From Shigella phage pSf-1: a DNA stretch of 51,821 nucleotides. Made by a program: the position numbers and the translations under genes. The notes beneath the pieces are model-generated. The model made no database searches and had not been told where the DNA came from. It was given only the letters and a program-made list of their open reading frames with translations. The stretch lies in the sequence record KC710998; one strand, 5' to 3'. Within the stretch, counting starts at the first letter, position 1. Each line of letters begins with the position of its first letter. Below are positions 1,308 to 47,321 of the stretch, one piece after another.

Positions 1308-2240
1308 TTAGAGAAGAGATTCAGGTTTGTAAACCTTTCTCTCTATCCCTTGCCTGTAATTATCATGAATCGGCATCATAATTTCAAGTCCTCTTTCCTC
1401 GGCAGCAATGATCGCGTCACGGTCTGTACTCTTACAGACAACTCGCATTCTTCTGTTGCCTTTATACCTGTAAGCTACAATCTCAATATTCGTTGCATCA
1501 AAGCAGGCCCAAACCTCTTGACCAGTTGCAAGGTGAATATGTTGCGCATCAATCCAGTCAACGCAAAGATAGATAGTCTTATCGGTGCTTCCTGTTCTAA
1601 CAACCGACCCCCGCGTGTAGTCCTTTGCGAGAAAAGACTGTTTACCTTCTTCATCAATGAAAAGCACATTGCACATTTCATCATCAACATCATCTGAATG
1701 CACAAGGTAACATGGTAACGCGTGAATGTATCGACCATCTTTTACGCCGCAATCATAATGACCATCTTCAGGCGGGTATATTCCTTCATATGTGCTTAAC
1801 GGCGTGCGATCAAATTTTAGTGTTTTTGACATAACGCGCTCGCAGCATTCATGGCTTGCCTGTTTCCCAAACGAATAACCAGAATCACGAGATACTCGCT
1901 TATTTGCCTTGATTCTATAGTCCTGCGGAACTTTTCCAAGAAAACGGCCCAAAATATTGATCACTTCGCTGTAAGGTTCTCCGGTTAGCTTCATGATCCA
2001 ACCAATTCCGGTATCATTACCGCACACGTTGCAGATCGCACCGCCATCGCCTTTTTTATCGCCAAGTTTATCCGTCCATCTGAAGCGATCCTTTCCGCCG
2101 CAGTGGGGGCAAGATTGATGCTTGCCGTTAAAAACTTCATTTGGAAGACCGCAAATACTTTGTAGCGCCTCACGCCACAATCCTTGCATATATGGGAGAA
2201 CATCTTCCTTTTGATAAACCATAAAGTTTTCGTTATTCAT
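1308..2240 (-). CDS. DNA primase (P4-type zinc-binding / toprim-like)
   Basis: CPHCGG...CNVCGND zinc-ribbon motif; start moved to internal ATG (MNNENFMVYQ) with GAGGTG RBS; track ORF 1308..2342. Confidence 0.6.
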   Translation of the reverse strand: MNNENFMVYQKEDVLPYMQGLWREALQSICGLPNEVFNGKHQSCPHCGGKDRFRWTDKLGDKKGDGGAICNVCGNDTGIGWIMKLTGEPYSEVINILGRFLGKVPQDYRIKANKRVSRDSGYSFGKQASHECCERVMSKTLKFDRTPLSTYEGIYPPEDGHYDCGVKDGRYIHALPCYLVHSDDVDDEMCNVLFIDEEGKQSFLAKDYTRGSVVRTGSTDKTIYLCVDWIDAQHIHLATGQEVWACFDATNIEIVAYRYKGNRRMRVVCKSTDRDAIIAAEERGLEIMMPIHDNYRQGIERKVYKPESLL

Positions 2241-2295
2241 ATGCACCTCAAACAAAAAAGCCTGACAGATGATAACATCATGCCAGGCATTGTTT

Positions 2296-2769
2296 TTAGC
2301 AATTAGTGCTTTCAGGTTTATACAGGAATCCGCCAGGTTCATAATCTGACATTCTTACCACTCGCAACATTTCACGCTTATCACATCTCTTTGTGAGCGG
2401 TTTTCCATTGGAATCAAATCGCAGATCTGGACGACAGAATGAAGCGCGATAGCCTTGACAGCCATACTTTTTGTAATCGTTATGCACCTTTTGAGCGCCA
2501 GCGGCTGAAATCATACCGCGAACTCGCCACTGATTTACAGTTTGCTGGCTAACGTTAAGACGTTTTGCCATTGCTGACACACTTCCGTAATACTCAATAA
2601 GGATGTCAAGTCGAGCTTTTAGTCCGGCTCGCACTTCATCTTTTAGTACATAGTATCCTGTCGGGCGCTTGCGCTTCTTCTTATCCTTCCCTCGTCGAGT
2701 TCCGTTGTTTCCATTAATTGTGCGCTTGTCAATCTTGCCAGTTGATACTGCGATTCGCTGTTCTTTCAT
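2296..2769 (-). CDS. HTH DNA-binding protein (Cro/YdaS-like regulator)
   Basis: helix-turn-helix segment SVSAMAKRLNVSQQTVNQWRVRG; basic N-terminus; divergent from helicase gene. Confidence 0.5.
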   Translation of the reverse strand: MKEQRIAVSTGKIDKRTINGNNGTRRGKDKKKRKRPTGYYVLKDEVRAGLKARLDILIEYYGSVSAMAKRLNVSQQTVNQWRVRGMISAAGAQKVHNDYKKYGCQGYRASFCRPDLRFDSNGKPLTKRCDKREMLRVVRMSDYEPGGFLYKPESTNC

Positions 2770-9543: not shown

Positions 9544-9588
9544 CAAATATACCGATACGAGATCGGGAGTTTTAACAAAAAGTGCTAT
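9544..9588 (-). promoter_or_regulatory. conserved promoter cassette (minus strand)
   Basis: reverse-complement motif GTTTTAACAAAAAGTGCTAT, 17 nt spacer with CCGAT/ATCGG inverted repeat, TATATT, CATCGAAACGAA leader. Confidence 0.55.
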
Positions 9589-10619: not shown

Positions 10620-12203
10620 TTACCCCAGCAATGTTGGATTTACGAAAACAACGCCATTAATCACGCAAATATAGTTTCTTTCCTCAAGCATCGGAAGCAG
10701 TTGCGTTTCCATTCGCTTCATTACTCCAGCCTGACCAACAAACGGCTTAACTTTTCGTGCTGCCTCATATATAGCGCGAACATTCAATATCCCCTTATTA
10801 GCCTTGCCGTGTCGAGTAATGATCTCGATTAGTTTACCCATTTCAGCATCATCACCAGCGTAGCCAGAAGCGTTGGCGGCGCTAATGTATGTTTTGCTCA
10901 ACTCGCTAAACATCAGTAGTGCTTCCTGAACGGTTTCAACCTCAATCTCTTTCGACTTTTGAGGGTATCCGCCAGGGTTAAACCAATTGCGGATAGTGTG
11001 CAAAACCGAAGCAATCCTGATCACCTGCTTATCCATTTTTCCAAGCGCACCGCGCAGCATTGTATGCGAATACTTTCCGCCATCGGCAAGGTGCGGTTCC
11101 ATTTCCTGACGAGCCATGTTAAGAACTCGCATTGCTGATTTGCTGATCTTAAGCTGGATGTTTGATTCACTCATGATGTTATGGATCAGCTTAAAATATT
11201 GACTTTTCAGTTCTCCATCAACAGGCTCATAAGTCGAATCACCGTTATCATCAACAAACTTTCGACGACCTAAAAATGATTCCTCACGCACAAGCAAATA
11301 ACGCTCACTTACACCGATACCGCGCGATCCTGCATCCATGATGGCATTGATTGTTTCATCCTGGGCAATTACCGCCATACAGCCAAGAGCTTTAAAACTC
11401 ATATTGTTGTCAGCGTTTGCACGAGCTATAGAAACATGACCGTGATCCCATGCTTTTAATACAAGTTCGCTGTTGGTTTTACGTTCACTATTGGCATATG
11501 TCAGACCTAAAAGGCTGTTAATACTCGTTGCCTCGTCTGAAATTACAGCAAAGTTACCCTGGCGATTATTGATTCTTGCAAGTCCTTCCGGCGTGGTGTC
11601 GGACACAGGGAAAACTATGTCACACATCTTTTCCAGTTTTTCTTCCAGATCTTCTTTCTCCTGGTACAGAGATTCCATATCAGCGCCGGAGCGCTCGCTT
11701 TTCATCTCTTTTGCAAGACCTGCCAACTTTGCCTGAATCTTTTTTCTTTCCTTCTTTCGCTGATCGTTAATTCTTTCCACTTCTGCAACCATTGGAGCAA
11801 GTGCCAAGCTGTTAACGGCAGATTTACCAGTTGATGGAGGCTGGCTTGTAACAACGTACAGAGCGGTTGGTTGATCCGTTCCGTGATACTCAACAGTGAA
11901 GCGTCCAAGCATTGCAGCAGACACGCATCCGATAAAATGCATATATGCCGATGATTCAGGGAACTGAACTGATCGAGCAATGTTGCGCGCCAACTTGCCA
12001 ACAATATCAACATCATTGCCAAGAGAAATTACAGGGTAGCGATCGTTTCCGTTATTAACATCATTAACCTCACCCCAAAAGCTGGACGATTGACGGTATC
12101 CGTTTGCCTGAATGGACACGCGCACCGGAGACAATCCTTGTGCATCAGCTAATTCGATAATTTGTTTTGGTGTTAGTTTGTTGGTTTCAAACGAAAAATT
12201 CAT
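10620..12203 (-). CDS. DUF3987-like P-loop ATPase (putative replicative primase-helicase-associated protein)
   Basis: Walker A-like PPSTGKS, Walker B-like AVISDEAT; start at MNFSFETNK (ATG 12203, AAAGGAG RBS) downstream of promoter cassette. Confidence 0.5.
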   Translation of the reverse strand: MNFSFETNKLTPKQIIELADAQGLSPVRVSIQANGYRQSSSFWGEVNDVNNGNDRYPVISLGNDVDIVGKLARNIARSVQFPESSAYMHFIGCVSAAMLGRFTVEYHGTDQPTALYVVTSQPPSTGKSAVNSLALAPMVAEVERINDQRKKERKKIQAKLAGLAKEMKSERSGADMESLYQEKEDLEEKLEKMCDIVFPVSDTTPEGLARINNRQGNFAVISDEATSINSLLGLTYANSERKTNSELVLKAWDHGHVSIARANADNNMSFKALGCMAVIAQDETINAIMDAGSRGIGVSERYLLVREESFLGRRKFVDDNGDSTYEPVDGELKSQYFKLIHNIMSESNIQLKISKSAMRVLNMARQEMEPHLADGGKYSHTMLRGALGKMDKQVIRIASVLHTIRNWFNPGGYPQKSKEIEVETVQEALLMFSELSKTYISAANASGYAGDDAEMGKLIEIITRHGKANKGILNVRAIYEAARKVKPFVGQAGVMKRMETQLLPMLEERNYICVINGVVFVNPTLLG

Positions 12204-12230
12204 TGGTGATAACTCCTTTTTGATGCGGCA

Positions 12231-12274
12231 ATAATACCGCACCAATGCTACCCGCATTTAACAAAAAATGCTAT
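12231..12274 (-). promoter_or_regulatory. conserved promoter cassette (minus strand, variant ATAGCATTTTTTGTTAAATG)
   Basis: motif + 19 nt spacer + TATTAT upstream of DUF3987 gene. Confidence 0.5.
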
Positions 12275-12874: not shown

Positions 12875-12904
12875 CGTTTATTTCTCCTTTCGTTTCGGTG
12901 AAGT

Positions 12905-12949
12905 GATTATGCCAGGTTTTGCACCTGGCGTTTTAACAAAAAGTGCTAT
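12905..12949 (-). promoter_or_regulatory. conserved promoter cassette (minus strand)
   Basis: 44-nt core identical to the plus-strand cassette at 17701..17744 (includes hairpin GCCAGGTGCAAAACCTGGC). Confidence 0.55.
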
Positions 12950-13655
12950 TTTGCGTTTGCTTCAAAGACGGCGCGAGCAAAACCGCGCGGTGTGAGGGAG
13001 CGGATCATCTTTGTGCGAGATGATTTTCCGCCAGTTTTGGCCCAACCAGGATTATCCTTGTCATCCTCTTTAGGAAGGATTGTTGCGCGCGGAGGAATAA
13101 CAAATCCGTTTCCAGTCCAAAGGCATGTTTTCTTAAAGTACCGATCCCGCGCCGGAATAATATCAGGGAAGTCGGGATGCTTATCATCTTCCGGCAGATA
13201 GCAGCATAATCGCACGGATGGAACGTATAATCAGGCTTACGCCATAACGTTGACAGCTTGCCTACAGGATTTTCGATCATGTAAGGAACGCCGAAATAAT
13301 CAGCGATATGCGCCGCGATTCTGCAAGTGTCGGCGGCCTCATCCTGGAACGCTGGATTCTCAAGGCGTTTTTTGGTCCAATGGCGAGATCCGCTATTTGC
13401 AAGGTCAGTGCACGGCGGAAATGCCATAATGAAATCAGGCTTGCCCCAATTTTCAAGTTTTGCGGTATATTTGAATAGCTCATCAATCCACACATTAACG
13501 TAAAAAATATTATCATGGATTATGCGCACTGATTGGTAGTCGCCATGATCTGCATCATCGTAATTAAAGCAAATGCATTTATATCCAGCATCAGCCCAAT
13601 CTTTAACGGCTTTACCAGATCCATCAAACAAAGAGAATATTAAACCTTTATACAT
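12946..13655 (-). CDS. C5-cytosine DNA methyltransferase-like protein, apparently frameshifted
   Basis: motif I LFDGSG, motif IV FPPCTDLANSG (PC dipeptide), motif VI ENPVG; coding continues in another frame (track ORFs 13005..13655 and 12946..13215). Confidence 0.45.
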
Positions 13656-16337: not shown

Positions 16338-16381
16338 AATGTACCCGATCAGGATGATTCAGTTTTAACAAAAAGTGCTAT
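16338..16381 (-). promoter_or_regulatory. conserved promoter cassette (minus strand)
   Basis: motif + 18 nt + TACATT + CATCGAAACGAG leader. Confidence 0.55.
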
Positions 16382-16974
16382 TTCTCAACTGGCGATTATT
16401 CCAACTATTCCATTAATCAGGAATAACAAGAATAACTCATTCGCGATCACCTGGATTGTGAGACTTTGAGTTTGGTCAATTTTAATCAAGTGATTAACTT
16501 TTTGTGTGGAGGGGATAGAGAAACGCGGCCCTCTTGCGTCCTTTCCGGCAATCCTGGCGCGCGCAATTGTTATCTTCTGTTATCGCTGTTATGCGTGTTA
16601 TTCCGGCGTGGAATCGCATAACAAAAAATAACAAGAAAAATCCATATAACATACTAAAAAATAAGGATTATTTATTTATATGTATCTATAAATTATTATC
16701 TGTTATGTGTGTTATGTGGGCGTATTGATACCAGATGTATTTTGGTGATTGTATGTGGTTGTGTGTTGGCTTGTATGTATATATGGGGTGGGGCGTATCC
16801 GCGCATTTTTAGATAACACGCAAAAACAACATTGATTTATAAGGAAAAGAACATGAATTTTGTTTCGTTCTTGAAACACAACATTGAAAAACTGCCAATA
16901 ACAATTAAAAACAGTTGACACGCCAGGAATGGTAAATGATAATGCAGCCACTGAATCACGAGGGGGGATAAAGC
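16382..16974. repeat. noncoding AT-rich island with TGTTAT/ATAACA iterons and TG-rich repeats (candidate origin or regulatory hub)
   Basis: four direct TGTTAT copies at 9-10 bp phasing (16568-16601), three ATAACA copies (16618-16651), TGTTATG x2 (16701-16715), GTGATTGT/TGTATGT repeats; no ORF of 60 aa or more. Confidence 0.6.
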
Positions 16975-17292
16975 ATGAGTGAGTCTGTGTTTACAAATGA
17001 GCTTCGCAAGGTTGCAATTGCTCTAGCCACTGGAGTACATGAATCTATCCAGATACCTGAAAGATGGGTAAGGCAGCACCTGGAGGGCAAGAAGTCAGCC
17101 AGCAACGCCGGATCATATCTGCGTCAGATTATGGGGCGCGTTCCAGAAGTGGCGGAGAAGGGGCGAGTTTCAGTATCAAAGAAACCTTACGGCCCTGATA
17201 GCGAATACTTCGGCGAAAATTACTTTGATGTGTCGATTGTTAATGCGCCGAATCGCAGGGTTTACAACAAGGCCGCGCTTGAGAAGCTGTAG
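16975..17292 (+). CDS. hypothetical protein (first gene of plus-strand early cluster)
   Basis: ATG with GAGGGGGGA RBS; a second frame stays open past the stop (possible indel). Confidence 0.45.
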   Translation: MSESVFTNELRKVAIALATGVHESIQIPERWVRQHLEGKKSASNAGSYLRQIMGRVPEVAEKGRVSVSKKPYGPDSEYFGENYFDVSIVNAPNRRVYNKAALEKL

Positions 17293-17694: not shown

Positions 17695-17700
17695 CCGGAA

Positions 17701-17745
17701 ATAGCACTTTTTGTTAAAACGCCAGGTGCAAAACCTGGCATAATA
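17701..17745 (+). promoter_or_regulatory. conserved promoter cassette
   Basis: ATAGCACTTTTTGTTAAAAC + GCCAGGTGCAAAACCTGGC hairpin + ATAATA + CATCGAAACGAG leader. Confidence 0.55.
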
Positions 17746-17776
17746 ACCTCATCGAAACGAGATTGAGGAAAACAAA

Positions 17777-35086: not shown

Positions 35087-35092
35087 TCACAA

Positions 35093-38907: not shown

Positions 38908-38940
38908 TTGATGATACAATGCACGAAAGGAGGTGCAATT

Positions 38941-39702
38941 ATGGCTAATGAAACAACAGGTCGCGCGGATCTTGAAAATTGTCTGCAAAGCCTTTACCCT
39001 GGCGAGATTATCACGCTAATTGAGATTGACGGCACAAAGTTTGGCGCAAACATTTACCGCATACACAATGAGAACATCTCATACACTGCGGAAGAATTAT
39101 TGCAGGCGCGAGAAACTGGAGTTCTTCCGCCGAAAGAGATTACATTCCGTGGCGAGGTTTACGGCGCGCGCCCGTTTGGAATATCTGGAATCAACTTCAC
39201 AAGCAACGGAAAGGCTGATAAGCCACAATTGATACTATCAAACCTTGATAGCCAGGTGAGCGCGATGATTCGCAACTTTAACGGCATGATGCAAGCTAAG
39301 GTTACAATCTGGATCACGCCAGCGGAATTAATGGGGAAAGATGGCAGCATTAAAGATGGAGCCTCAAGAAAGCTGGTTTACTACATTGAGCGCCCAAGCC
39401 ATTACAATAGAATGATGGCGAAATTTGACCTGACATCGCCTTATGATATGGATGGAATAATGATTCCTCCGCGAATAACTCAAAGCGTTTGTTATTGGGC
39501 GCAGCGTGGATGGTATCGAAGCGGAAAAGGTTGCGGATACAATGGATCGCGAATGTTTGACAAAGACAACAATCCTGTAACAGATCCATCTCAAGACTTT
39601 TGCGCAGGAACTGTAACAGCGTGCAAACTTCGTTTTGGTGCAGATCAGCAGCTTGATTTTGGCGGTGCACCAGTAGCAAGCCTGTTAAGGAGAAATCAGT
39701 GA
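38941..39702 (+). CDS. minor tail protein (lambda L-like)
   Basis: start ATG 38941 with AGGAGGTG RBS (track ORF from 38908); position. Confidence 0.55.
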   Translation: MANETTGRADLENCLQSLYPGEIITLIEIDGTKFGANIYRIHNENISYTAEELLQARETGVLPPKEITFRGEVYGARPFGISGINFTSNGKADKPQLILSNLDSQVSAMIRNFNGMMQAKVTIWITPAELMGKDGSIKDGASRKLVYYIERPSHYNRMMAKFDLTSPYDMDGIMIPPRITQSVCYWAQRGWYRSGKGCGYNGSRMFDKDNNPVTDPSQDFCAGTVTACKLRFGADQQLDFGGAPVASLLRRNQ

Positions 39703-44572: not shown

Positions 44573-45535
44573 ATACATATTTGGAGTGAATGGTATAGGC
44601 ATTGAAATATTTATATTAAATGGAAATTGAGCGCCGCTCTGAGTAGAATAGTTACCTACCCTTGTTCCTGGGGTACTTCTTACGTTGCCACCACTCATGC
44701 ATACGCCCTTGTATCGAATGTTATTATATCCACCCGTAACTCTACATATTGTACCTGTTCTCAGTATTGGGAAAAATCCACCGCACCACTGCCAACCATC
44801 ATTTATCGCCATAGTCCCGCCAAGAACAAAAGGACGTCTAACGCTTGAGAAAACTATCTGACCAGCAGGATTGCTCATAGTGATTCCTGGTCCTGGAGGT
44901 GGTGGAGTGTTATTAAATATTACGAGTTGCACGTATACGCTCGCGCCAACGTCATCAATTCCGTTATAGTTTGCATCTCTGCACCATATCGTGTTGCCGT
45001 CAGATTCCAGAGTTACGTTTGGGTTATCCCACATTCCGAAAGGAACACCCTGGACTGGCAACTGAGCCTGACCGTTAACCTGGATTCCTCCAACAAATGC
45101 CGCGCTCATTAACCTGGCGTTGTTCGGTATTGATGCAAAGTCCGTTGAGTCGCTAACAAGTATCCCCTGATTACCCGCCTGAGCGGGGAGTATTTCGTAG
45201 CAGTTGCCGTAAAACCTCATTCTCCTTCCCCTGCTCCCGTTAAAATTACCTACCGTTATTCGACCAGTTGCGTCATTTACCTTTTGAAAGCTGGTTAAAT
45301 AATAAACTTCCGGTATGTAATCCATATCGTCGATATAAACGGCTTGAGATGGAAGGCAAAAAGCCGTTGATCCTGGACTCATTTGCAAACCAAAATCAAA
45401 TACTGATCCAGATGAATCAACTCCGTCGGCTTGTATAGGTCCACACCATGATGGGGCGCGAAGTCCCGATGTTATCTCCATTGCCGGACGACCGTCATTT
45501 AGGTTTATATATATTCCCTGCCCCATAATTACCAC
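44570..45535 (-). CDS. putative receptor-binding protein (inference from context)
   Basis: 321 aa, Gly/Asn/Ser-rich; co-oriented with and directly downstream of lipoprotein gene; convergent with J. Confidence 0.35.
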   Translation of the reverse strand: MVIMGQGIYINLNDGRPAMEITSGLRAPSWCGPIQADGVDSSGSVFDFGLQMSPGSTAFCLPSQAVYIDDMDYIPEVYYLTSFQKVNDATGRITVGNFNGSRGRRMRFYGNCYEILPAQAGNQGILVSDSTDFASIPNNARLMSAAFVGGIQVNGQAQLPVQGVPFGMWDNPNVTLESDGNTIWCRDANYNGIDDVGASVYVQLVIFNNTPPPPGPGITMSNPAGQIVFSSVRRPFVLGGTMAINDGWQWCGGFFPILRTGTICRVTGGYNNIRYKGVCMSGGNVRSTPGTRVGNYSTQSGAQFPFNINISMPIPFTPNMY

Positions 45536-45759
45536 TCTTTAGTTTTGATTGATACCTTGCCGCTAAAGTTGCCCTGGACGTCATCGGATGACAGACCTTT
45601 GAATCGCATATCTATTTCGCCAGCCGGAATCTTCTGACCATCAACTAATCGCACCATGCAAGATCCGTAAGTGTAAGTAACACAGTCGCCATTTTTAAGA
45701 TTCTGAGCACAACCAGTCAGGGCAACGGCTGCAATCAAAACGGCGATTAACTCTTTCAT
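45529..45759 (-). CDS. small lipoprotein, Llp/Cor-like superinfection-exclusion candidate
   Basis: signal peptide + lipobox LTGC at residues 14-17; 76 aa; AAGGAG RBS. Confidence 0.5.
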   Translation of the reverse strand: MKELIAVLIAAVALTGCAQNLKNGDCVTYTYGSCMVRLVDGQKIPAGEIDMRFKGLSSDDVQGNFSGKVSIKTKEW

Positions 45760-45790
45760 CTTGGTATCTCCTTCGTTGTTGTTGGTTGCA

Positions 45791-45834
45791 ACTATACACG
45801 ATCTTGCGGTTGGCGTTTAGCAAAAAGTGCTATT
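45791..45834 (-). promoter_or_regulatory. conserved promoter cassette (minus strand, variant ATAGCACTTTTTGCTAAAC + TATAGT)
   Basis: motif + 18 nt + TATAGT + CAACAACAACGAAGGAG leader. Confidence 0.55.
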
Positions 45835-46259
45835 CTTGTTCTTTTTGTTATCCGGTGTTCTCAAATCTGCGGAGTCTTAAATTTAGCTCAAAAAGCGAAC
45901 AACAATAGAGCGCAATACATACAGATAATATATATACATACATATAAATCAATAAGTTAGTAGTATATATATTCATGTTTGTTCTTTATTGTTATCTATG
46001 TTTTGTGTGATTTTGTGTGTCTGGTGATTTTTCTGTGATTGTGCATGTGTCATTGGTTATGTGTGTCTATATATCTATATCCGGCGCAAATTGAGGAACA
46101 AGAGAACAAAAGATAACAAGGATATTTATCAATCACTTACATGTAAGTTTTGTTATCTAAGTTGGCTATAACGTTGTTAGAACAGAAAAAACAAAATAAC
46201 TATTGACTAAACGCATCAAATAGCTACAATGCAGACATACCAACCAATGAGGGCAAATC
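45835..46259. repeat. noncoding AT-rich island with TGTTATC/GATAACA iterons, TATA-repeats and GTGATT/GTGTG repeats
   Basis: copies of TGTTATC at about 45845, 45990, 46151; GATAACA at 46113; TATATATACATACATATAAAT tract; no ORF of 60 aa or more. Confidence 0.6.
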
Positions 46260-47321
46260 ATGAATAAGTTTATGGCGTACACCAGCGAAGAAATGAGCAA
46301 TGAGCTTTATCACGATCCAGAAGCGTGGACGGCTGATTATGTTAGTGGATCAAGCCTTGCAGAGATTTACAGCACATGCCCGGCGGCGTGGAAGTTCAAG
46401 CCGCGCGACGACAAGAGCAAGGCGCTAGTTTTCGGTACGCAGTCGCATACCAACTTTGAAAGCAAGGAGCTTTTCGAAAAAACATATCGCCGTGCGCCAG
46501 CGCCAGAAGACTTTAAGGATCTGATAACCAGCCAAACGGCGCTTGCTGCAAAGCTAAAATCATTTGGCCTGAAAGGTACAACAGGAAAGACTTACCCTGA
46601 ACTTATAAAAATGTTGGTTGACTGCGGAGAAGACCTTAACGTCATGTGGTTAATCGACATGATCGCAGAAAGTCAGGCCAGGGCTGACGGCGTGCAGCTA
46701 ATCGAATCTAAAGATTACGATGCGTGCGTGGCAATGCGCCAGGTTCTGGAATCAATACCTGAACATAACGCATGTATGAATAGCAAGACAGCACAACGTG
46801 AATTATCGTTGTTCGGTGAAATCAACGGCGTAAAAGTCAAAGTGCGATGCGATCACGTTGACGTAACGAAGAACGTAACAGCAACTTTGATTGATGGTTA
46901 CGATGAAAAAGGACAGCCGATTTGCCGCGATATTATTTATCCAGAGGCGATTGTGATCACTGACTACAAAACAACGATGAGCGCTAATCCGGCTGAGTTT
47001 ATGCGCCTGGCCTACAATCACGGCTATTATCTGAAAATGGCGTTGCAATGTGATTTATTCAGGAAAGCGTATCCAGAAGAAAAGCGACCTATAGTTGTGC
47101 GCCTGTTAGCGCAAGAGAAGAAAGAGCCTTACTTGCCGTTAGCTTTCCGCATGAACAGCGAGCAATTGAAGATCGGGCGCATTCAGTACATGAGCGTAAT
47201 TAACCAGTTTGCCATGTGCCAGCAACATGACGTTTGGCCTTCGTATTCAAACGGTGAGCCGGAGGTTTGCCTTGATACTCCTGATTGGGTGCGACGCCAG
47301 TTTAAGCAATATCTTATTTAA
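46260..47321 (+). CDS. PD-(D/E)xK family exonuclease (recombination exonuclease candidate)
   Basis: ITDYKTT motif (RecB/Cas4-like nuclease motif); upstream of Erf and SSB. Confidence 0.5.
   Translation: MNKFMAYTSEEMSNELYHDPEAWTADYVSGSSLAEIYSTCPAAWKFKPRDDKSKALVFGTQSHTNFESKELFEKTYRRAPAPEDFKDLITSQTALAAKLKSFGLKGTTGKTYPELIKMLVDCGEDLNVMWLIDMIAESQARADGVQLIESKDYDACVAMRQVLESIPEHNACMNSKTAQRELSLFGEINGVKVKVRCDHVDVTKNVTATLIDGYDEKGQPICRDIIYPEAIVITDYKTTMSANPAEFMRLAYNHGYYLKMALQCDLFRKAYPEEKRPIVVRLLAQEKKEPYLPLAFRMNSEQLKIGRIQYMSVINQFAMCQQHDVWPSYSNGEPEVCLDTPDWVRRQFKQYLI

Follow-up and report, generated by a model that had tools for sequence, protein, structure and literature searches.

The gene map of Shigella phage pSf-1 (KC710998) contains only two large non-coding stretches, 16372-16974 (island 1) and 45760-46259 (island 2), and the question is what function they have. 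The window, i.e. the whole stretch of 51,821 nt that was analysed, is the complete or near-complete genome (51.8 kb) of a T1-like siphovirus (Drexlerviridae, Tempevirinae, Hanrivervirus), and the two islands make up 2.1% of it. Island 2 is a gap of 500 bp between the minus-strand gene of a cor-type lipoprotein (45529-45759, Pfam PF24052) and the plus-strand gene of exonuclease VIII (46260-47321), the first gene of an exonuclease-Erf-SSB operon. A first-pass annotation, which was based on the letters alone, had described a non-coding region between the lipoprotein gene and the recombination genes, in agreement with this gap. We found that island 2 carries an ordered module of short repeats (iterons), an AT-rich core and an early promoter, and that island 1 carries a second copy. 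Our analyses somewhat favour the view that the two modules are replication origins of the iteron/DNA-unwinding element (DUE) type that are coupled to early promoters. Island 2 would then probably be the place at which the MCM-like helicase of the phage is loaded for the start of DNA replication.

The module of island 2 starts on the left with phased TGTT(A/C)T repeats, which are followed by a (TA)n core, by inverted repeats and a second TATA patch, and, on the right, by a sigma70 early promoter. The left outer iteron array (45837-45862, plus strand) contains TGTTCTT at 45837, TGTTATC at 45846, and TGTTCTC at 45856, phased by 9-10 bp, and is the most highly conserved non-promoter block of the footprint (0.76). 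It is followed by an inner block of inverted iterons on the minus strand (45889-45915, GAACAACAATAG...), which comprises the inverted repeats I1 and I4 and a copy at -47 '>' from the core centre, in degenerate spellings. The (TA)n-rich core, a candidate DUE, spans 45914-45975 and holds a perfect 11-nt inverted repeat, AATATATATAC / GTATATATATT (45927-45937 and 45963-45973). To the right of the core, the inner iterons TGTTCTT (45980) and TGTTATC (45990) are spaced by 10 bp on the plus strand (45980-45996) and include the copy at ~+35 '<'. Across the core, the left inner block and 45979-45993 make up a dyad. The repeats of island 2 are thus arranged in two nested pairs, an inner one of 45889-45915 (-) with 45980/45990 (+) and an outer one of 45837-45862 (+) with 46103/46113 (-).

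The right half of the module begins with a G+T-rich, C-poor block on the plus strand (45997-46065; T 56%, G 24%, and C 8% over 45976-46075). The GTGTG/GTGATT repeats that had been noticed there are present as three copies each of GTGATT and TGTGTG. A second, short TATATA patch with a subsequent GC clamp, CTATATATCTATATCCGGCGC, follows at 46066-46088 (conservation 0.65-0.68); it has an equivalent place in island 1 and in the islands of phages T1, TLS, Rtp, and N141. The right outer inverted iterons on the minus strand (GGAACAAGAGAACAAAAGATAACAA, 46096-46119) include AGAACAA at 46103 and ATAACAA at 46113, which correspond to +152 and +160 '>', and have a conservation of 0.75. The promoter-proximal iterons (46151-46185) are TGTTATC at 46151 (+) and AGAACAG at 46179 (-), the inverted pair I3. 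The right edge is formed by the sigma70-type early promoter TTGACT-16-TACAAT (46203-46230, plus strand) of the exonuclease VIII-Erf-SSB operon, which is the equivalent of promoter P51 of phage TLS and the most conserved part of the island (0.80). The distance from the core to this promoter, which lies on its right, is ~250-300 bp.

Between the outer and the promoter-proximal iterons lies a footprinted block, AATCA(A/T)NNNACTTAC (46125-46148, plus strand), which includes the 14-bp palindrome ACTTACATGTAAGT (46135-46148). An IHF-like site had been proposed at this place, and 46127-46139 (TATCAATCACTTA) indeed matches the consensus WATCAANNNNTTR. The block is present in about all of the 34 Tempevirinae sequences, but the strict consensus is kept in only nine of them. 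The consensus has six matches in the window, three of which are within the islands. A role of IHF at 46127-46139 is therefore doubtful as judged from the sequences.

To estimate whether the repeats and the core stand out from the remainder of the genome, we compared them with shuffled sequences and with the whole window. TGTTATC/GATAACA occurs 18 times in the window, while 7.0 +/- 2.3 copies are expected, and none of 100 shuffles reached 18. Seven of the 18 copies are inside the two islands, corresponding to a 29-fold enrichment. The positions that had been given for the copies in island 2 were accurate to within 1-2 nt, i.e. 45846 (+), 45990 (+), 46112-46118 (-), and 46151 (+). The broader word TGTT[AC]T has nine copies in island 2 (18 per kb) and 13 copies in island 1 (21.6 per kb), phased by 9-10 bp, in comparison to 1.5 per kb elsewhere. 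An unbiased k-mer enrichment led to the same vocabulary, with ATAACA, GATAACA, AGAACA, and (TA)n at the head of the words of both islands. When duplex stability was calculated from nearest-neighbour energies, the 60-mers that start at 45914 and 16645 ranked as the two least stable ones of the window (z = 4.8 each; 3.5 for the third), so that the description of the TATA tract as resembling a DUE fits the most meltable DNA of the genome. Similarly, no other 70-mers of the plus strand are as G+T-rich as those at 45999 (84% G+T, z = 4.6) and 16741 (80%). This G+T block is extreme only in Hanrivervirus and, partly, in island 2 of TLS, and was thus rejected as a family-wide feature.

Island 1 contains the partner module on the plus strand (16566-16974), with an AT core at 16645-16705 and a promoter of the type TTGACA-17-GATAAT at 16915-16943. 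Its iterons are located at 16568, 16578, 16587, and 16596 (+), at 16618, 16628, and 16646 (-), and at 16701 and 16710 (+). In the right half, a G+T block (16717-16795) is followed by a TATA patch and G clamp (~16776-16800) and by inverted iterons at 16813, 16848, and 16898. The Smith-Waterman scores for the two islands were 28 in forward and 33 in reverse orientation, in contrast to 13.2 +/- 1.7, with a maximum of 21, for dinucleotide shuffles. The numbers of common 9-mers were 6 in forward and 22 in reverse orientation, versus 1.9. The alignment is colinear from a 21-nt repeat at the left edge through the promoter at the right edge. Hence, the repeats and TG-rich blocks that the first-pass annotation had reported as common to both islands represent a similarity above composition, and a direct comparison of the islands bears this out. 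These comparisons, together with those of the other genomes below, indicate that the islands are paralogous copies of one cis-acting module that evolve in concert and use one lineage-specific repeat word.

For comparison, we analysed six complete genomes, i.e. the window and phage Henu8 (both Hanrivervirus), T1 (Tunavirinae), TLS (Tlsvirus), Rtp (Braunvirinae), and Klebsiella phage KPN N141 (Webervirus). In all six, which represent four lineages, the islands are the two least stable duplexes of the genome, with z values of 4.3-6.0 versus 3.8 or less for the third. We also analysed 76 related IMG/VR loci, which span exonuclease identities of 54-99%. All 76 have an AT core (z = 3.6-5.7) upstream of the exonuclease VIII gene, in 73 cases at a distance of 290-349 bp from the start codon. 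Across the family, the core of island 1 is 246-343 bp away from the first ATG of the other early operon. Judged by sequence, the module is carried by all examined Drexlerviridae. Both islands had been described as lying at divergent-transcription junctions, which is true for the window but not conserved: the arrangement is co-directional in TLS, and in N141 the island is located downstream of the primase gene. Island 2 stays with the exonuclease operon despite the inversion of the latter in N141 and a co-directional gene in front of it in TLS, and divergent transcription is therefore incidental.

The closest relatives of island 2 and its flanks, with 89-97% identity, are found in Shigella phage ESh4, in E. 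coli phages Fulano1, Henu8, aaroes, and damhaus, and in others. Among the Tempevirinae, the island changes more slowly than the synonymous (third-codon) sites of the adjacent gene, with a conservation of 0.90-0.95 versus 0.85-0.87 in close relatives. Conservation is highest in the left repeat array, the core, the second TATA patch with the GC clamp and inverted repeats, and the promoter. Hidden genes or RNAs in the island lacked support. Three open reading frames (ORFs) of 40-44 amino acids in island 2 are intact in only one to three of 34 relatives, and they contain frameshifts or stops even in relatives with 93-95% identity, so that small genes were rejected. A structured RNA or a known RNA family was rejected as well, because Rfam gave nothing at the gathering threshold for the whole window and nothing at E <= 1 for the island, and folding of the island gave no signal (z-scores of -0.8 to +0.9). 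It is thus very improbable that the islands are AT-rich spacers that are alike only by composition, or that they hide a small gene or RNA. It is true that hypothetical proteins have been annotated within the homologous island in some GenBank records, and that promoter-like matches in the AT core are no commoner than in shuffles, but the similarity of the islands far exceeds that of the shuffles, the architecture is kept in 76 of 76 loci, and the values for conservation, ORF integrity, and folding all argue against it.

While the architecture is constant, the words that flank the core differ between lineages. The window uses TGTTATC/TGTTCT, other Tempevirinae use TTGTTTC, TGTTTTC, or TGTTCAC, and T1 uses TGTAACA/GTGTAAC. 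Further words are GATTACA in SRT8, TTGTCAC in IME347, TTGTCCC (at least seven copies), GGAGGAT (seven copies), and, in Webervirus, GTAAGAT (ten copies). The positions of the words relative to the core centre are fixed across the lineages, i.e. ~-100 '<', ~-40 '>', ~+35 '<', and ~+150 '>', and the nearest flanking copies have opposite orientations in 56 cases and the same orientation in 16. An example is the locus L064, in which the core is flanked by GGGACAAATATGGGACAAATAT ... TAGTTGTCCCATTTGTCCCG. The word of each lineage is nearly confined to the islands and present in both of them (TGTAACA in T1, six of six copies; CCGCGGAAA in Rtp, four of four; GTAAGAT in N141, 13 of 19). The Smith-Waterman scores of the two islands within one genome are 92 for Rtp, 84 for N141, and 55 for Henu8, in contrast to 12-33 between genera, and the island pairs of Rtp and N141 have nearly identical cores of ~90 nt. 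Within Hanrivervirus, the island 1 module is polymorphic, and the version of the window is in the minority, with 26 phage records in comparison to 181 for island 2. The region 16566-16974 of the window (compare 2181-2590 in Henu8) also matches phage BEK26, with 71%, at the island 2 position of the latter.

A repeat word that changes with the lineage raises the question of which protein reads it. The mosaic phage ESCO41 (NC_047820) was informative in this respect. Most of its proteins are 40-70% identical to those of all reference genomes, and both of its islands are of the Rtp type (89.6% over 297 nt and 75.5% over 343 nt); they did not match those of T1, TLS, N141, or the window. Several of its proteins are also Rtp-like, i.e. 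a Cro-like helix-turn-helix (HTH) protein (91%), a DUF3987 helicase (92%), an SF2 helicase (93%), and a VRR-NUC protein (94%), as are the holin, the endolysin, the lipoprotein, Pnk, and a few small ORFs (range 85-96%). In contrast, the genes that flank the islands are not Rtp-like: exonuclease VIII is 50% identical to Rtp versus 70% to the window, Erf 42%, and the first early gene 37%. The primase has only 45% identity to that of Rtp and does not co-segregate with the island type. Within the limits of one mosaic phage, in which the HTH and helicase genes are of the same donor type, the sequences indicate that the islands co-segregate with a few proteins of replication and regulation that are encoded elsewhere, as expected for cis sites that are matched to a trans-acting reader.

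The first candidate for a reader of the iterons, and for the helicase to be loaded, is the winged helix of the DUF3987 protein (10620-12257, minus strand; Pfam PF13148). DUF3987 proteins have been proposed to be MCM-like replicative helicases of superfamily 6 (SF6) with a C-terminal winged helix, usually accompanied by a primase (PMC4889955). An AlphaFold2 model of the phage protein, based on 41 sequences, had a pLDDT (predicted local distance difference test) value of 86.6 and a pTM (predicted template modelling) score of 0.84, and residues 469-539 have a winged-helix topology. A Foldseek search with the model yielded MCM2-7 or archaeal MCM proteins as the top ~35 matches (probability 1.00), followed by Orc1/Cdc6, while searches of the PDB with the sequence and with a profile gave no match. 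At the level of a predicted structure, this confirms that the DUF3987 protein of the window is MCM-like and has a C-terminal winged helix. The most variable segments of the helicase are residues 19-60 and 481-500. The ORF probably starts ~18 codons after the first possible start; the homologues have 527 amino acids, and residues 1-24 of the model have pLDDT values <50.

The second candidate reader, on the basis of its sequence, is the Cro/YdaS-type HTH protein (2296-2769, minus strand), which is encoded at the head of the primase operon and has its own sigma70 promoter (2848->2821). It has a conserved basic N-terminus, a conserved Cys-rich C-terminus, and a variable HTH segment. In ~50 contigs, the recognition helix pairs 1:1 with the repeat word, a correlation that is confounded with phylogeny. 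Contrasts between genomes did not separate the HTH protein from the helicase as the reader: loci L031 and L033 both use the same TGTTT-type words, and SRT8 and IME347 are too distant from T1. The identity of 71% to the Webervirus protein had suggested that the HTH protein reads the conserved 21-nt repeat and not the iterons; this was rejected, because the HTH segment is the variable part. In the RefSeq record of Henu8 (NC_049853), the gene is missing between primase (gp52) and helicase (gp53), at 38933-39400, where the ORF is conserved family-wide. The Zn-ribbon/Toprim primase of the operon (1308-2342, minus strand; Pfam PF08273) is homologous to the N-terminal primase domain of the P4 alpha protein (BLASTP E = 5e-14).

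The combination of iterons, AT-rich centre, and MCM-like helicase is reminiscent of the origins of Staphylococcus aureus pathogenicity islands (SaPIs). The SaPI Rep protein combines the roles of an initiator and a self-loading, MCM-like helicase and reads iterons of 5-6 bp with its C-terminal winged helix. A SaPI origin comprises 6-12 of these iterons, of which at least two lie on each side of an AT-rich centre in opposite directions, and the primase is a separate protein (PMC9371898). In both systems, the iterons are short (5-8 bp) and specific to the element. The window likewise has a short enriched word (TGTT[AC]T, present nine times in island 2 and 13 times in island 1), meltable AT-rich centres with repeats on both sides (45914-45975 and 16645-16705), and at least two repeats per side in opposite directions, the inner-left copies being degenerate. 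The phage also encodes, according to the model, an MCM-like helicase with a C-terminal winged helix, and a separate primase gene. Several features differ. The SaPI origin is single and directly downstream of rep, whereas the phage has two islands at ~4 kb and ~33.5 kb from the helicase gene; an early promoter is joined to each phage island; the phage helicase is a member of the DUF3987 and not of the SaPI Rep family; and the phage has an equally good candidate reader in the Cro-like HTH protein. As to a match between repeat and initiator, the island type of ESCO41 follows the helicase (92% to Rtp) but equally the HTH protein, the SF2 helicase, and the VRR-NUC protein, and the C-terminus of the helicase varies by lineage as the HTH helix does. 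The balance tips slightly towards an iteron/DUE origin for a self-loading MCM-like helicase, which is present in duplicate here.

The satellite phage P4 offers a precedent for two sites. Both its ori and its crr contain type-1 iterons, TGTTCACC, which are bound by the alpha primase-helicase. In the annotated P4 record, these are two separated cis regions with one iteron word, phased by 9-11 bp in both orientations, and TGTT-type words resemble TGTTCACC; TLS has TGTTCAC. The exact P4 iteron is, however, not used: the window has TGTTATC and TGTTCT[TC], TLS has TGTTCAC(G/A), and other lineages have unrelated words. In addition, the T1-family modules are equivalent copies with an AT core each, whereas P4 has an origin and an auxiliary site. 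The homology of the primase to the alpha primase domain is the only common part of the proteins. No counterpart of the D5-type helicase of alpha or of its Pox_D5 origin-binding domain was detected, alpha did not match the phage helicase, the fold of the latter is MCM-like and not SF3 in the model, and the phage primase does not co-segregate with the island type, so that an initiator of the P4 alpha type was rejected. An origin of the DnaA/oriC type was also excluded, because neither island contains a DnaA box (TTWTNCACA), even with one mismatch (background 2.2 per kb), and GATC is depleted to one site per island versus 5.5 per kb genome-wide. Of the three earlier suggestions (paired origins, enhancer-like hubs, or partner sites for DNA looping), paired origins fit best: the pairing itself and the origin-type anatomy of repeats and DUE are supported, while an origin of the DnaA type is not. 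A pair of origins is also known from the Bacillus phage SPP1, a virulent siphovirus of ~45 kb with pac-type packaging, in which oriL and oriR are bound by one origin-binding protein. The SPP1 origins are dispersed, have repeated boxes and an AT-rich stretch in common, and one of them is inside the initiator gene; the machinery consists of an unrelated origin-binding protein and a DnaB-type helicase with its loader.

If the modules are origins, the following course of events can be envisaged. Host RNA polymerase would fire the early promoters directly after injection. A phage DNA-binding protein would then occupy the iterons on both flanks, most likely the MCM-like DUF3987 protein with its winged helix, and alternatively or additionally the Cro-like HTH protein from the head of the primase operon. 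The (TA)n core would melt, and helicase rings would load on both sides. The P4-alpha-type primase would prime, host Pol III would extend, and adjacent transcription may aid opening. Binding, melting, and initiation are the steps that we infer.

Several points weigh against origins. Experimental or marker-frequency data on any T1-like phage were not found in the searchable literature, and initiation at the islands is therefore purely inferential. The island pair of the window, with its Smith-Waterman score of 28, is the most diverged one of the six genomes, and its exact-word dyad is less clean than those in L064, L065, or Webervirus. In both islands, an early promoter is found at a fixed distance, and the co-segregating proteins include a Cro-like HTH protein, which fits a control of transcription equally well. 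The HTH helix and the C-terminus of the helicase both vary by lineage, which does not separate the two candidate readers. The islands are far from the helicase gene, ~4 kb and ~33.5 kb, unlike the situation in SaPIs or P4. Finally, two equivalent origins in a genome of 50 kb would call for an explanation of their own. A speculative extension, which we regard as rather unlikely, is that the origins form an obligate pair: by analogy to P4 alpha, one lineage-specific initiator (the helicase winged helix and/or the HTH protein) would occupy and bridge both modules, early transcription, initiation, and perhaps copy number (by handcuffing) would be coupled across 29 kb, and gene conversion would keep the specificity of both copies matched to the initiator.

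The strongest competitor is that the islands are hubs of early transcription. The repeats would be operators or enhancers for the Cro-like HTH protein, which is itself made from the third early promoter and would switch the island promoters off or on at the early-to-middle transition, while the (TA)n core would be an upstream bendable or supercoil-sensitive element at which no replication starts. Phage TLS has only three consensus sigma70 promoters, P01, P51, and P57, the last of which serves the operon of HTH regulator and primase (PMC11447400). The window has three equivalent promoters (16915-16943, 46203-46230, and 2848->2821), and each island holds one of them; P01 and P51 form the right edges of the two islands of TLS, as 16915-16943 and 46203-46230 do in the window. 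This distribution suits a hub, as do the nearly constant distance of ~300 bp from core to ATG at both islands across the family, the co-segregation of the HTH protein with the island type in ESCO41, its 1:1 pairing with the repeat word, and the presence of two iteron copies within 60 bp upstream of the -35 element. However, the repeat arrays centre on an AT core 250 bp upstream and not on the promoter, and the third sigma70 promoter (2848->2821) has neither repeats nor a core. Furthermore, the module is unchanged where the exonuclease promoter is of a 21-nt repeat/TTGACT type (L064, L065, and N141), and neither repression nor activation is known to need a repeat dyad around the least stable DNA of a genome. 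Taken together, hubs without replication initiation are possible but unlikely. Autoregulation of adjacent promoters is common for initiators, so that hubs and origins are not mutually exclusive.

It is improbable that the modules are architectural or pairing sites, at which a putative protein bridges two positions of the genome by looping or handcuffing without any initiation. Such a bridge might serve genome circularisation, recombination-dependent replication (island 2), or packaging (island 1, which adjoins a presumed pac region). Concerted evolution keeps the two copies alike, P4 provides a known example of two sites (ori and crr), island 1 adjoins the place at which the records of T1, TLS, and Rtp start and end, and island 2 always moves with the recombination operon, even when this is inverted (N141). 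In contrast, the pac-proximal segment 16384-16565 is missing from island 2, so that a role in packaging would not be common to both islands, and exonuclease VIII and Erf do not co-segregate with the island type in ESCO41.

This additional left segment of island 1 contains ATTATTCC/GGAATAA inverted repeats, and its identity to Henu8 is 98%. By position, it corresponds to the place at which the records of T1, TLS, and Rtp have their ends, which makes it a candidate for the pac region. The left part of island 1 has only weak matches to the genome end of T1 (82% over 34 nt); homology of the two was thus dropped as an explanation, and the link is positional only. On the other side of island 1, the first early gene (16975-17292) encodes a DUF7174 protein of 105 amino acids, in comparison to 150-190 amino acids in Henu8, T1, TLS, Rtp, and N141, and its product looks C-terminally truncated. 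The DUF7174 genes have a conserved position, yet their products are only 14-37% identical between genera.

The 21-nt direct repeat at the left edges of the islands has been described for TLS, T1, Rtp, and Rogue1, with the consensus aaATAGCACnnnTTGnTAAAA and without an assigned function (PMC11447400). The window contains at least 16 copies of this repeat (AAATAGCACnnnTTGnTAAAA), each oriented toward the downstream gene, and one copy is present at the left edge of each island. They are located at 2781, 5304, 6324, 17699, 18162, 19379, 20596, 21891, 23236, and 27134 on the plus strand and at 9561, 12257, 12922, 14971, 15477, 16354, and 45806 on the minus strand. A -10-like hexamer follows ~22 nt after the repeat, and the repeat looks like a middle or late promoter element of the phage. 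At island 2, the repeat (AATAGCACTTTTTGCTAAA, 45816-45834) and a -10-like TATAGT (45791-45796) form the promoter cassette of the cor lipoprotein gene (45791-45834, minus strand), which is a neighbour of the module and outside its repeat system. The segments 12890-12951 and 17699-17760, on either side of island 1, are a 62-nt inverted duplication (95% complementary), i.e. a cassette of 21-nt repeat, hairpin, and -10 element that is used on opposite strands. In L064 and L065 (~1410-1450 each) and in N141 (~46180-46230, minus strand), the exonuclease VIII promoter is a hybrid (ATAGCACTTTTTGACTTGC), in which the 21-nt repeat is fused to a TTGACT -35 element and replaces the plain sigma70 promoter, an arrangement that points to an overlap between the repeat and the -35 region of its promoters.

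Two further observations concern the surroundings of the modules. A GC-rich hairpin with a T run (AAGGGGCnnnnGCCCCTTTTT) is found at the ends of gene clusters, at 35091, 41020, 44548, 48390, and 48887 of the window, and this family probably represents intrinsic terminators. About 18 GenBank records within MG065636-MG065687 are named 'Campylobacter phage' (host Campylobacter jejuni) and are ~92-94% identical to this coliphage region; their host label is doubtful.

The TLS study covers the promoters and the 21-nt repeats and states that iteron-type repeats are absent anywhere in TLS, while the iteron/AT-core module between them is present in TLS and is not described there (PMC11447400). The paper on phage SU57 reported that no replication origin was found. 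The searchable literature yielded neither a transcriptome nor an origin-mapping study for any T1-like phage, and articles in subscription journals may mention the islands.

T1 belongs to the seven classic T phages, and T1-like phages are common contaminants of laboratories and fermentations as well as candidates for phage therapy. The islands offer concrete candidates for replication origins of the T1 family, the first ones that can be tested; recent genome papers on this family found neither an origin nor iterons (PMC11447400, PMC7718038). The module provides two targets of ~400 bp and two candidate binding proteins. If the modules are origins, they would be an example from a bacterial virus of the loading of an MCM-like helicase at a dyad origin. 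Part of the genome mosaicism would be explained by origin and initiator moving together, and engineers would obtain defined sequences, either to be left intact or to be employed as phage-dependent replicons. If the modules are instead hubs of transcription, they would define the control of the early programme of the T1-like family.

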